A DNA stretch of 64,000 bases from an uncultured bacterium (GCA_903885965.1 CAISKQ010000060.1:21220-85219), one strand, 5' to 3'; counted from the first letter of the stretch, positions 36,571 through 40,566 are shown. The notes: generated by a model from the sequence alone, not told the origin. Translations and numbers: made by a program.

Positions 36571-36643
36571 AGCCGTCCATCAGAATCGAACTGATGACCT
36601 ACGCGTTACGAGTGCGTCGCTCTGCCAACTGAGCTAGGACGGC
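36571..36643 (-). tRNA. tRNA-Thr (anticodon CGU).
   Basis: GCCGTCC acceptor, D-arm GCTCAGTTGGCAGAGC, anticodon loop CTCGTAA, T-arm ATCAG-TTCGATT-CTGAT, acceptor GGACGGC. Confidence 0.75.
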
Positions 36644-36698
36644 TTTTCGGATGTCCCGCTTTCGCTGTGCGGGTTCACCAGAGGTGAATAACAGAATT

Positions 36699-36728
36699 TT
36701 AGCTAATTTGAGCCCTTTTGGCAAGCAT
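36699..36728. repeat. Direct repeat copy 1 of TTAGCTAATTTGAGCCCTTTTGGCAAGC (a copy of the porB 3' end).
   Basis: Identical 28-bp core at 36699, 38007 and 39659. Confidence 0.85.
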
Positions 36729-36747
36729 GAAAAAAGCTCGAAAAAAG

Positions 36748-37917
36748 TTAGAAAAAATTATCCGCTGTAATCAATCTCGTTTTCGCCTCTGGGTATCTAT
36801 TTTTAAAAGCCTTATTGACAGATCTTCTTTTGTATTTCACTTCCACGCCAATGATTTCTCCCTTTTTTTCCAAAACTACATCAATTTCAGAGCCTTGTTT
36901 TGTTCGCCAATAATAAAACTTCAAATTTGCATCACAATAACTATCTTGCTTTATCAATTCACTAATAATGAAGTTTTCGAACAAAGCCCCCTTGTCAGTC
37001 CGCGAATCCAAATCAGAGAAATCACCAATCAGGGCATTTCTGATGCCCGTATCATAGAAAAATATCTTTGCTGCTTTTGAAATTTCATCCCGCTTTTTCT
37101 TTGAATATGGATACAGCCGAAACAAAATAAAACTCTGCTCGAAAATTTCAATATAGCGTTTAATTGTCCGCTGATCAGCCTTTAAGCTACTGGCTAGCTC
37201 TGAATAATTTATAAGATTTCCAATTTGAAAAGCCAGCAACCTCAGCAAATCTTTGGCTAATTTCTTGTCCTCAATCAAATCCAATTCCAAAATATCCTTG
37301 AAAATTAAACTGTCCACGAAATTCAAAAGATATTTCTCATCGCTTGGACTATCTATTAAATGCGGATATTGCCCATAAACCAACACACCATCAAGAACAC
37401 TTTTCAAATCAAACCTGTAAAGCTGATCCCTGGGCTTGTATTTTTTATCATCTATTATTTTTTCAAGAATATTGAAATTCAGCTCTTTTTCAATTCCTTT
37501 CTGATTCAAATATTCAGAAAAAGTGAGCGGATAAATATTATAATCTATCTTTCTACCAGCCAAACTCTCCCCTGTTTTGTTTTTGATGTGAAAAGAAGAC
37601 GAACCTGTAATTATAATTCTCATCCCATCTAATTGATCATAGATTATTTTCACTGCCCTGCCAGGATTGCTCAAAAGATGAATTTCATCAATAATAATCT
37701 CTTTGGATTTTTCATTTATGAGCGTTTTGTAGGTTTCAATGTCATATGTTTCAAGAATTTTTCTAATAGGCTCGTTATCCACCAAAAAATAGGATCCTTT
37801 CGGAAATATTTTTTTGACCAAGGTTGTTTTTCCAACCTGCCTTGAACCAAGCAAGATAAGCACTTGCTTGTATTTTTCAAAATGTCGACTAAGTTTGAGG
37901 TCAAGATGTCTTTGCAT
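36748..37917 (-). CDS. AAA+ ATPase of the COG1373/DUF4143 family (paralog of 6945..8171).
   Basis: LILLGSRQVGKTTLV, EIIIDEIHLL, and the C-terminal domain typical of DUF4143 ATPases. Confidence 0.75.
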   Translation of the reverse strand: MQRHLDLKLSRHFEKYKQVLILLGSRQVGKTTLVKKIFPKGSYFLVDNEPIRKILETYDIETYKTLINEKSKEIIIDEIHLLSNPGRAVKIIYDQLDGMRIIITGSSSFHIKNKTGESLAGRKIDYNIYPLTFSEYLNQKGIEKELNFNILEKIIDDKKYKPRDQLYRFDLKSVLDGVLVYGQYPHLIDSPSDEKYLLNFVDSLIFKDILELDLIEDKKLAKDLLRLLAFQIGNLINYSELASSLKADQRTIKRYIEIFEQSFILFRLYPYSKKKRDEISKAAKIFFYDTGIRNALIGDFSDLDSRTDKGALFENFIISELIKQDSYCDANLKFYYWRTKQGSEIDVVLEKKGEIIGVEVKYKRRSVNKAFKNRYPEAKTRLITADNFF

Positions 37918-38006
37918 ATAAATATATTACTTTTTAATCATCTGATGTAACAAAAGATATATCTAATTATACACACACCACTTTTTTTGTCAAGCCATTA
38001 TGTCAA

Positions 38007-38036
38007 ATCTTAGCTAATTTGAGCCCTTTTGGCAAG
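38007..38036. repeat. Direct repeat copy 2 of the porB 3' end sequence.
   Basis: tcttagctaatttgagcccttttggcaagcat. Confidence 0.85.
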
Positions 38037-38147
38037 CATTAGAATTGTATAATGTATTTTGTATGATGTATAAAGTAGCTATGCGCTTCCCACGTCTATA
38101 CATCATACTTTCTACATAATGAAAAACTAACTTGTTTTTTCATCACA

Positions 38148-39635
38148 TTAAATACGGAATGGTTTCGAAAGTTCTTGTATGAACTTTTTTAATTTAATAA
38201 TTTCAACTTGCTCACCTGCTTGTGCAATTTTATCATGGTCAATCTGACTCGCTATTGCATTCCGATGAGACCCCAGGAGTGCTCTTTTTTTGTTTTTAGA
38301 TTCAGTTACTATTCCTTGCACATGTTGCTCACGCTCTGCCAAATTAAGTATTTTTGTATATCGCTCTAGTGCTTCTTTTCTTAGTTCTAAAAAAAATCCT
38401 TCGTCTTCAAGTCTGACAATCTTCTTCTTCCAATCCCTTAAAATCTCAAATTCCAATAAAGAAATTATTTGCTTCCTTGGCATGCCAAAGTTTTCCATTT
38501 TTTCTATCAAGGCTAAGCCATCAGAAATTCTTTTTTGATGGAGTTTTCGCTCTTTATCTATGAGTTGTATTTCCTCACTTTCAATATGCCATTCACTAAA
38601 AAATGCCACATCCGCTCCAAGATAATCATATAACCCGCCCTCCGACTGGCTTTCCAATAAATAAGCGCTGATTATATCAATAGGGGTTTCGTCTTTCAAG
38701 TACGCAAATATTTCGTCTCTTATTCTCTTATCGGCAATAAATCCAGTGTTAATAATATTAACTTCTACACAAAAATATTGAAAAGCTTTTGGAGAATTCG
38801 CCATAACCGCTTTAACTGTTTCATCCAACAGGCTCTTTAGCGTGTGCCTCTCTTCATGAATCCTAATTATTTTTTTTTGATCATCAGATAGCTCGCCACC
38901 TTTATTATTAATTCCAATTTTTTCGCCCCTTGCAAATCCTTCACTTTTCTCTGCCACCTCCTCTGATGCGTTATAGGCTTTTGCATAATCTCTAATGTCC
39001 TCACATTCCACAAGAAAAGAAGTAGCCCCTCTATCAATATGCACCTTCCCACACGGTTCTCCGTTGAATAATTTTAGAAATAATTCTTCGTCATCCTCTC
39101 CAGGAATTAGCGTCCCCTGTATTGAGTCCATTGTTTTATTCCGATCACAAAGGTGCCTCAAGAAAATACCATACCCTTGAATCTGAGCTGGGCTCAGTTG
39201 CAAGCCCGCTGAATAAGCAATGATATTTTCTTTCAATGTTTCTACTTTTTCACCAAACTTAAGCTGGTCATTCTCTTGAAGTAAGATATCCTCCAAATAA
39301 CAATTTAATTGTGAAATTTTGACAAACTGTTCAATAAATCTTTTTTTATATTCAACAATCCTTCGTGATTTTTCTGTTAAATATTCCTCCTGGGAAAGTT
39401 CTTTACGCTCGTCTTTGGTAAAATTATTTATTTTCTTTAATTCTTCTGCTGGATCAAAACATTCATATTGCTCAGCAATTAAAAAACTCTCATCCACACC
39501 CAACCATTCTCTTCCATACTTATTGTACTCATTCTTGTCTTCATATTCATCATCAAAAAAATCTAGCGCATACTCAACATCACTTTTCACAACGTCAGGA
39601 TTATTGTTTATATTTTCAAATACATTTCCACTCAT
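38148..39635 (-). CDS. Acidic hypothetical protein with an HExxH motif (possible metallopeptidase-like). The ORF-track start at 39701 reads through the porB stop, so the start here is the MSGNVF Met.
   Basis: IRIHEERHTL contains HEERH; no other family signature recognised. Confidence 0.4.
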   Translation of the reverse strand: MSGNVFENINNNPDVVKSDVEYALDFFDDEYEDKNEYNKYGREWLGVDESFLIAEQYECFDPAEELKKINNFTKDERKELSQEEYLTEKSRRIVEYKKRFIEQFVKISQLNCYLEDILLQENDQLKFGEKVETLKENIIAYSAGLQLSPAQIQGYGIFLRHLCDRNKTMDSIQGTLIPGEDDEELFLKLFNGEPCGKVHIDRGATSFLVECEDIRDYAKAYNASEEVAEKSEGFARGEKIGINNKGGELSDDQKKIIRIHEERHTLKSLLDETVKAVMANSPKAFQYFCVEVNIINTGFIADKRIRDEIFAYLKDETPIDIISAYLLESQSEGGLYDYLGADVAFFSEWHIESEEIQLIDKERKLHQKRISDGLALIEKMENFGMPRKQIISLLEFEILRDWKKKIVRLEDEGFFLELRKEALERYTKILNLAEREQHVQGIVTESKNKKRALLGSHRNAIASQIDHDKIAQAGEQVEIIKLKKFIQELSKPFRI

Positions 39636-39657
39636 ATGCAGTATGAAATTATTTATT

Positions 39658-40566
39658 TTAGCTAATTTGAGCCCTTTTGGCAAGCTTTTCGAAATTTTCA
39701 TTAACCGTCTTTTGAATTTCTTTAATCACCTCAAGATTTTTTTCTTTAAAGAGATGTTTAAAGCGTCCTTGGGTTTTCAGGAATTCTTCAATCGGCTTTG
39801 GCTCCTTCACAATATTATTGATGATATATTTTCCATCTTCTATTTCAAAAAGCGGCCAAAAATTAGTTTCAGTGGCAAGTTTTCCAATTGCAACATACTC
39901 CGAAGTTGGAAATTTCCAAATTTGCGTGCAAGGTTGCAAAACCAACAAAAAGGATGGACCTGGAGTGTTTAAAGCTTTTTGAGCTTTGCGTTTCAGGTCT
40001 GGCAGATAAGCAACATTAGCTTGGGCCAAATATTTGATCCCATGGGCTTTGACAATTTCCATCAAATCTTTGCGTTGCTGAGTTTTGCCAAATGACTGAC
40101 TGCCAACTGGAGCCGTTTCAGTGTTGGCGCCATATGGGGTTGCGCCACTACGCTGTCCTCCAGTGTTCATGTAGCCTTCATTGTCATAGCAAACATACAA
40201 AAAATCATGTCCGCGTTCGAGAGCACCAGAAAGCGCTTGCAGGCCAATGTCATAAGTTCCACCGTCGCCACCAAAAGCGATTATCTTGGCAGGATTTTTT
40301 AACTTTCCGGATTTTTCCAAAGCTTTTTGCGCCGCATCAATCCCGGCCGCGGTGGCTGCCGCATTGCCAAAAACACTGTGAATATATGGCACTTTCCAAG
40401 AAGTTGATGGATAAATCGTTGTTGTCACTTCAAGACAACCAGTTGCGTTTGAAACAATCACTTGCTCATCGGTTGCCCCCAGCACAGTCCGCACAATCGC
40501 CGGAATTCCACAACCCGCGCAAGTAGCATGACCAGAAGAGAATTTTTTGGTAAGATCTTTATTCAT
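39658..40566 (-). CDS. porB: Pyruvate/2-oxoacid:ferredoxin oxidoreductase beta subunit (TPP-binding).
   Basis: GHATCAGCGIPAI (Cys ligand region), GGDGGTYDIGLQALSGA (TPP-binding GDG). Confidence 0.85.
   Translation of the reverse strand: MNKDLTKKFSSGHATCAGCGIPAIVRTVLGATDEQVIVSNATGCLEVTTTIYPSTSWKVPYIHSVFGNAAATAAGIDAAQKALEKSGKLKNPAKIIAFGGDGGTYDIGLQALSGALERGHDFLYVCYDNEGYMNTGGQRSGATPYGANTETAPVGSQSFGKTQQRKDLMEIVKAHGIKYLAQANVAYLPDLKRKAQKALNTPGPSFLLVLQPCTQIWKFPTSEYVAIGKLATETNFWPLFEIEDGKYIINNIVKEPKPIEEFLKTQGRFKHLFKEKNLEVIKEIQKTVNENFEKLAKRAQIS

Follow-up and report, generated by a model that had tools for sequence, protein, structure and literature searches.

A possible hot spot for gene cassettes at the end of porB in a putative Moranbacteria genome

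The closest known systems to the locus described here are the cis-mobilizable elements (CIMEs) found at gene ends and the minimal mobile elements of Neisseria, in which different whole-gene cassettes lie between the same two conserved genes and are exchanged by transformation and homologous recombination. Integron cassettes are bounded by attC, an imperfect palindrome of 57–141 bp with the core sites R'' and R' (GTTRRRY). Xer-dependent modules include the integrative mobile elements exploiting Xer (IMEX) at dif and the pdif modules of Acinetobacter plasmids, and in a dif-type site a 6-bp centre is flanked by two imperfect inverted arms of 11 bp. Insertion-duplication of the Campbell type is known chiefly from laboratory work with suicide plasmids. 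Bacteria of the candidate phyla radiation (CPR, or Patescibacteria) possess tiny genomes in which few mobile elements have been recognised, and for that reason the way in which they acquire accessory and defence genes is poorly understood. Here we describe a locus on a 64-kb stretch of DNA from an uncultured bacterium (CAISKQ010000060.1; hereafter the window, all coordinates being positions in the whole of it), where porB, the gene for the beta subunit of pyruvate:ferredoxin oxidoreductase, is followed by two inserted genes and tRNA-Thr(CGU), and where the last 28 bp of porB occur three times in exact copy. We put at about even the probability that this array is a cassette hot spot run by host recombination over a duplicated segment of gene end and putative promoter. 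The window is our whole view of the source genome, and the host is judged to belong to Candidatus Moranbacteria (CPR/Patescibacteria) by the names on close PorB homologues. Accretion of CIMEs at the 3' end of a gene has been described for ICESt1 and ICESt3 at fda of Streptococcus thermophilus (PMC5704250), and tandem islands at ssrA are reported for Dehalococcoides (PMC3146451).

The repeated end of porB

The genes of the array all lie on the minus strand. porB (39658–40566; NCBIfam PorB at 3.6e-104, Pfam TPP_enzyme_C) is the last gene of an operon ordered porG-porD-porA-(GxxExxY/PDDEXK_3 gene)-porB, and its last nine codons with the stop codon constitute repeat copy 3 (39658–39685). The gene of cassette A, encoding a 495-aa protein (38148–39635), starts with an ATG 22 nt past copy 3 and is followed by a hairpin-rich spacer of 110 nt, here named H (38038–38147; RNA fold −36.9 kcal/mol, z −4.7). 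After copy 2 (38010–38037) come 92 nt of promoter and 5' untranslated region (5'UTR) of the DUF4143 module (37918–38009), with TTGACA-16-TATAAT at 37993–37966 matching the consensus at 12 of 12 positions, and then the gene of cassette B (36748–37917), which encodes a 389-aa protein with the domains AAA_14 and DUF4143 (Pfam 6e-28 and 6e-46, respectively). Copy 1 (36699–36726) lies 21 nt past this gene, and a leader of 55 nt (36644–36698) separates it from tRNA-Thr(CGU) (36570–36643), which was detected by ARAGORN and by Rfam with 61.8 bits, as the sole match of the Rfam scan.

Read on the plus strand, the 28-mer TTAGCTAATTTGAGCCCTTTTGGCAAGC is present in three exact copies in the window, and no fourth copy was found there at up to three mismatches (0 expected from 100 shuffles). 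Beyond the 28 bp, copies 1 and 2 agree over a further AT and copies 1 and 3 over AAT. The same arrangement recurs in the independent assemblies L005, L008 and L009 (loci of related assemblies are given L numbers), and thus the three-copy layout is no assembly artefact. An earlier note on the window had described three exact repeats, which indeed stand at 36699, 38010 and 39658, its middle position of 38007 being off by 3 nt. It had correctly recognised in them the last 28 bp of porB with the stop codon, one gene in each interval (an acidic HExxH protein and a DUF4143 ATPase), and tRNA-Thr at the end of the array, and it made no mention that the repeat also reads as a sigma-70-type promoter facing each downstream unit.

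PorB proteins ending in ...KL(A/V)K(K/R)AQIS (...EKLAKRAQIS in the window) are common in Moranbacteria and among PorB homologues down to about 76% identity, and the 28 bp is the native 3' end of porB. On the coding strand the 28 bp and the next three bases read GC-TTGCCA-N17-TAAAAT, a sigma-70-like sequence facing the downstream unit. Copy 3 has GC-TTGCCA-N17-TAA followed by AAT, copy 2 has TTGCCA-N17-TAAGAT, and copy 1, the putative tRNA-Thr promoter, has TTGCCA-N17-TAAAAT; in a promoter scan the three score 9 or 10 of 12 consensus matches (10 for copy 3). We aligned 19 copies, many of them non-coding, from 12 loci in at least nine assemblies, and variable positions are 1, 6, 12, 20, 22–24, 29 and 31 only. 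Position 6 varies in L018 alone, where a change of C to T (TTGTCA) brings the −35 box nearer to the consensus. The other five −35 bases and the TAA of the −10 box are invariant in all 19 copies including the non-coding ones, the remaining variation falls into the spacer, the fourth and sixth −10 bases and the first base of the repeat, and the three bases after the block complete TAA[A/G]AT in 16 of the 19. Wherever an examined relative has tRNA-Thr on the porB strand, a copy precedes it, and in L018, with 80% nucleotide identity in porB, TTGTCA-N17-TAAAAT ends 19 nt ahead of the tRNA. We infer from this pattern that the segment is an overlap of the porB end with the promoter of the next transcription unit. 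In the window porB keeps its stop codon, each downstream unit is preceded by the promoter-like segment, and cassette A has no promoter of its own.

The empty state predicted by the earlier note, consisting of porB, one copy and tRNA-Thr, does exist in L016 (PorB protein 97% identical), L017 and L018. In L001, L013 and L015, porB ends in ...EKLQKKV* and is followed by H, one non-coding copy and the tRNA; the stop codon of this alternative end is supplied by H, and a later rearrangement may have produced the end. The non-coding copies of these three loci prompted the idea that the repeat was originally the tRNA promoter alone and was later fused to porB, which was rejected as a general origin because ...AKRAQIS-type ends are widespread in PorB and the overlap is also present in the more distant L018. 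Three copies are found in AM_bin-0953 (L002 plus L004) and in L039/L040, where the first slot holds a 617–647-aa homologue of the 495-aa protein together with a 914-aa protein. L035 and L036 possess four copies and three cassettes, namely the 617-aa and 914-aa proteins, a DUF4143 gene, and a set of periplasmic binding protein, methyltransferase and LDcluster4 protein that is followed by H. L014 retains 16–20 additional bases of the porB end ahead of one copy, and L012 carries a different DUF4143 gene (32% identical) and a repeat of about 85 bp, composed of the 28 bp and the tRNA leader, that brackets a cassette of a small open reading frame (ORF). The spacer H is homologous to sequence directly upstream of the tRNA-proximal copy in L001, L013 and L035; a repeat of the miniature inverted-repeat transposable element type was considered for it and rejected, since the H motif occurs once in the window. 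In the porB tree, genomes with empty and occupied sites are intermixed, L016 standing with AM_bin-0953 and L017 with L035.

Some further features of these relatives were noted in passing. A palindromic element of about 30 nt, coding for SAQGGSALG(G/R), lies in frame at differing positions of porB in L002 (4909–5847) and L003 (83–1021); it is also intergenic, in the spacers after tRNA-Thr of L004, L016 and L017, and recalls the Rickettsia palindromic elements. In L001 (5961–6017), L004 (1729–1765), L016 (1437–1473) and L017 (5256–5312), the 37 nt of the 3' half of tRNA-Thr occur a second time, about 100 bp past the tRNA on its downstream side; this duplication brackets palindromic mini-elements and is not found in the window. 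Between tRNA-Thr and rubrerythrin the window (35866–36540) and L039/L040 carry a DUF5674 gene and a 110-aa gene that are missing in L001, L013 and L017; this is one more indel, on the side of the tRNA that faces away from porB. In L002 (1–142) the end of an ORF on the opposite strand (...LNNRPRKSNNYLTPNQVY) adjoins repeat copy 2 of AM_bin-0953; we take this end to resemble the C-terminus of an IS30-family transposase, and a profile search with the 35-aa fragment gave no match.

Exchange of cassettes and the recombination behind it

Similarity between distant genomes at this locus begins and ends at repeat copies. When the window is compared with L003 and L035, a block of 95% identity starts 12 nt ahead of copy 2 and ends 4 nt past copy 1, the sequences outside it being unrelated, and porB has 83% nucleotide identity. 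Because the block is bounded by the repeat, the cassette is the unit that moved. The porB gene itself is a mosaic, L035 agreeing at 100% with L017 over most of the gene and at 100% with the window over roughly its last 75 nt, and thus homologous recombination between co-occurring lineages appears to be frequent here. Both the mosaic porB and the repeat-bounded blocks fit homologous recombination, and they are compatible also with a site-specific enzyme. As in minimal mobile elements, related strains carry differing cassettes between the same conserved genes and no mobility genes.

Under the hot-spot reading, to which we gave an even chance, a foreign gene, probably the widely transferred DUF4143 gene, would most likely have been inserted with duplication of the target and would thereby have produced the first repeat pair. 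This first duplication is modelled on the same pattern at unrelated DUF4143 loci, and single-crossover integration of a circle bearing a piece of the target would give such a layout. Once duplicated, the copies of the segment would be the sole homology common to arrays of different content, and crossovers in or beside them would allow cassettes to be gained, lost or swapped between co-occurring strains, by way of excised circles or incoming linear DNA. Selection would preserve each copy, as a promoter everywhere and at porB also as coding sequence bearing the stop codon.

Several points weigh against this scenario. With 28–31 bp of homology, RecA-type recombination would operate close to its lower limit. 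In no fewer than six different junction contexts the repeat has its upstream edge at one and the same base, (AT)GCTTGCC, and a site-specific enzyme would explain a constant edge more simply than independent duplications trimmed by selection. Such a recombinase may be encoded outside the visible 64 kb, the scenario leaves the origin of the first duplication without a mechanistic account, and another cause may lie behind the long duplications, of up to about 600 bp, that are seen at other loci. Promoter-like matches are frequent in this AT-rich DNA, 17 being found against 12 expected, and the promoter activity of the segment is deduced from consensus and conservation.

Since the homology is short for RecA and the upstream edge is constant, a site-specific recombinase whose gene lies elsewhere in the genome or on a helper element is a serious rival, even though we hold it to be rather unlikely. 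The 28 bp would then be the core of an attachment site (att), at which successive integration would have stacked integrase-less elements in a CIME-like or integron-like manner. Such an enzyme would account for the exact identity of the three copies, for the single copy at empty sites and the one to four copies in relatives, for an upstream boundary that stays the same in six or more junction contexts, for blocks of similarity between genomes that are bounded by the copies, and for two different DUF4143 genes (32% identical) that each lie about 21 nt upstream of a copy. However, no integrase, transposase or other recombinase domain was found by Pfam in 43 ORFs of the window, which comprise all 34 non-overlapping ORFs of at least 120 aa taken as genes and smaller ones at the locus; the absence of an integrase inside the array, as the earlier note had it, is thereby borne out. 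There is likewise no recombinase in the precomputed Pfam hits of the genes within 10 kb of porB on L005, a contig with the same gene order, and no integrase among the called genes of L005, L017, L018 and L035–L040, the other loci having been inspected as ORFs only. The 28 bp shows no dyad symmetry and no inverted-repeat arms, its extent varies in L012 and L014, and apart from position 6 of L018 the variation among copies avoids the conserved hexamer bases, which fits a promoter better than a crossover site.

An att site should also travel with its element, whereas the DUF4143 genes at L021, L023, L029 and window 6945–8171 are flanked by unrelated local sequence. The 28-mer was not found beside the second DUF4143 gene of the window, and in AM_bin-0953, the one array-bearing whole genome that was searched, exact copies occur at the porB locus only. 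Because the DUF4143 module is accompanied elsewhere by unrelated local duplications, and because the extent of the repeat differs in L012 and L014, the repeat is a property of the site and not of the element. Of the successive insertions proposed before, what stands is that the end of porB is regenerated and that both intervals are inserted; the style of an integrative element or integron fails on several counts, no recombinase having been found in the ORFs and genes scanned and the 28 bp having neither dyad symmetry nor attC-like features.

Two known kinds of site were considered and rejected. For an integron there is no IntI by the array among the ORFs scanned, no palindromic boundary and no GTTRRRY, the repeat beginning with GCTTGCC and ending with GCTAA, and the hairpin region follows the 495-aa cassette only. 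For dif/Xer, which was prompted by the length of 28 bp, the arms of GCTTGCCAAAA/GGGCTC/AAATTAGCTAA are non-complementary and have no likeness to the dif consensus.

The DUF4143 gene and other inserted genes

The protein of cassette B has an AAA_14 + DUF4143 (PD-(D/E)xK-type) architecture and matches the PADLOC candidate PDC-S01 (E 1.3e-112). PDC-S01 is an unvalidated candidate consisting of ATPase and PD-(D/E)xK and was reported to be the fourth most common defence system of prokaryotes, candidates included (PMC12988326). At 82–88% identity the window protein has more than 120 distinct 90%-identity clusters of relatives bearing names from several CPR phyla, all of them 387–397 aa in length and nearly all exactly 389 aa, many on contigs of 1.3–1.6 kb. 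Homology to the window copy at the nucleotide level begins just ahead of its own TTGACA-16-TATAAT promoter and extends through the stop codon, and the contexts are unrelated, including dapB/RhuM genes, glycosyltransferase operons and toxin-antitoxin neighbourhoods. The 5'UTR (window 37918–37966) is conserved at the nucleotide level across CPR phyla in L019, L021, L025, L029, L031 and L032, and it opens right behind the −10 box with a 10-bp palindrome, AGATATATCT, that may be an operator or an RNA element.

Duplications flank the gene at several of these places. In L021 a duplication of about 125 bp comprises the final part, stop codon included, of the upstream glycosyltransferase gene and the Shine-Dalgarno sequence of the next gene, in L023 three copies of 123–183 bp bracket DUF4143 and a HicA cassette, and in L029 the flanking duplication is 63 bp long. 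The window itself holds a second AAA_14/DUF4143 gene (6945–8171, minus strand), which encodes 408 aa, shares 32% identity with the first and has a TTGACA-17-TATAAT of its own. Directly downstream of it lies a pseudogene copy of the first 615 bp or so of wzt (6288–6894, minus strand; 78% identical to wzt −13 to 615), and directly upstream are decayed 5' fragments of wzt (8279–8433, minus strand), which share an exact 23-mer with 6805–6827. The intact wzt (3630–4988) is found further downstream, past a PaaX/Cas2-like gene, and the layout of one gene end three times and two inserts parallels that of the porB locus with an unrelated repeat. The PaaX_M/Cas2-like gene (5610–6164), which sits between the pseudogene and the intact wzt, is surrounded by four copies of a repeat of about 40 bp (5150–5192, 5421–5463, 5525–5564 and 6217–6257).

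Flanking repeats accompany 5 of the 9 DUF4143 genes, compared with 4 of 134 other genes of the same loci (Fisher p = 3e-5), the comparison set being mostly core genes, and this enrichment shows an association with insertion and not necessarily with the DUF4143 family. It nevertheless raises a further explanation, in which the AAA_14/DUF4143 gene would be a single-gene mobile element whose ATPase-nuclease product drives its own insertion with long and variable target duplications and seeds the arrays. The spread of the gene over so many clusters, phyla and unrelated contexts, many on very short contigs, speaks for it, as do the enrichment and the presence of a DUF4143 gene in every multi-copy array seen (window porB, window wzt, L012, L023 and L035). 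We regard it as improbable all the same, since the homology stops at promoter and stop codon with no terminal repeats or conserved ends, 4 of the 9 contexts have no flanking repeat, other cassettes are flanked by repeats too, and the set compared consisted of core genes instead of other accessory genes. Neither the gene nor the repeat was found in IMG/VR, on which ground a phage origin was rejected as well. To our knowledge such an element has no biochemical precedent. Of three papers that name DUF4143, none, to judge by title and abstract, concerns its mobility.

That the repeats are target-site duplications left by the staggered cut of a conventional transposon or insertion sequence is very improbable: direct repeats do flank each insert and the ORF end in AM_bin-0953 may be IS30-like (with no match in the profile search), but 28 bp, and 63–183 bp elsewhere, are far above known transposase duplications, terminal inverted repeats are absent, the repeat edges are the same for two different cassettes, and the window ORFs scanned contain no transposase.

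The protein of cassette A is acidic (isoelectric point 5.0), has HEERH at residue 260 and found no match in Pfam, NCBIfam or PADLOC. It belongs to an unannotated family with 177 representative relatives, and in 40 sequences D216, G233, H260, E261, H264, E308 and W402 are invariant, i.e., HExxH with a downstream E. AlphaFold2 with an alignment reached a mean confidence (pLDDT) of 84, and the model had no convincing or meaningful structural neighbour. A metallopeptidase-like active site is plausible. The 617-aa HExxH homologue is accompanied by acidic proteins of 914 aa (L003 2901–5645) and 1386 aa (L014 489–4649) in which FNLPDE-like motifs recur and a Cys-rich C-terminal domain is conserved, with a weak ZorA-like hit only; in the array's first slot the large acidic and HExxH proteins make up a hypervariable pair.

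Other small insertions are visible in these genomes. The GxxExxY (PDDEXK_3) gene (window 40627–41055) stands inside the por operon between porA and porB and is missing in L001, L013 and L018. Short repeats on either side of it (40574–40601 and 41064–41110) recur at 34180–34207 and 34243–34289, where they adjoin each other, gene-free, in the prfB-ZIP spacer, and the gene with its repeats looks like a small mobile gene together with its empty or solo form. Genes of the 23S_rRNA_IVP family (four-helix bundle) lie in ordinary operons, in a glycan cluster of the window (14077–14478) and in the porD/porA gap of L017 (1990–2364), and appear to be another small family that inserts freely. In L001 a 126-bp repeat (87% identical) is found on both sides of ftsE (1924–2181 and 2897–3127); the ftsE spacers are far shorter in the window, and an intergenic repeat element was seemingly inserted on both sides in L001. 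ARAGORN also reported a tRNA-??? with undetermined anticodon at window 29808–29883.

Comparison with known systems

The locus offers a concrete picture of how CPR bacteria acquire genes. A 28-bp gene end and probable promoter, copied with each insertion, would give single cassettes a handle for moving between strains with flanks that diverge by 17%. Perhaps the weightier point is that a PDC-S01-type gene, very common as a candidate for defence and near-identical across CPR phyla, is unusually often flanked by duplications of its insertion site, and one may ask whether it is cargo or agent. If the DUF4143 gene were indeed the element that seeds the arrays, CPR bacteria would possess a recombinase-free counterpart of the integron, with promoter-bounded arrays seeded by duplications.

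Like an integron, the porB array is an ordered series of cassettes with one or a few genes, in one orientation and at a fixed site, separated by a short repeated boundary. It differs in having no IntI and no attI, its boundary is an identical 28-mer that lacks the attC palindrome and GTTRRRY, one of its cassettes has a strong promoter of its own, and the boundary itself is promoter-like. Xer-dependent modules are likewise small, carry no recombinase of their own and have a repeated 28-bp site between them, whereas the porB 28-mer has no inverted arms. Campbell-type integration resembles it in leaving an intact gene and a partial copy of its end across the insert, a layout that is seen at porB, at the glycosyltransferase gene ends of L021 and L029, at the 5' end of a glycosyltransferase family 2 (GT2) gene in L023 and at the 5' end of wzt in the window.

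The likeness to CIMEs is closer. In both, direct repeats that equal the target gene's end separate stacked elements without integration genes, the empty site has one copy, and the number of units varies among strains. The att of a CIME, however, derives from an integrase-bearing element and is constant wherever that element integrates, whereas no integrase was found for the porB array, its repeat has no recombinase-type symmetry and is variable in extent in two relatives, and its cargo is accompanied by local repeats elsewhere. The units of the porB array are, moreover, single genes of 1.3–1.6 kb.

With the minimal mobile elements of Neisseria the array shares conserved flanks (porB and tRNA-Thr), strain-specific cassettes, the lack of mobility genes and mosaic flanking genes. 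What sets the porB array apart is that a promoter-like 28-bp segment derived from the flank bounds every cassette in a separate copy, and therefore exchange can act on single cassettes inside the array.

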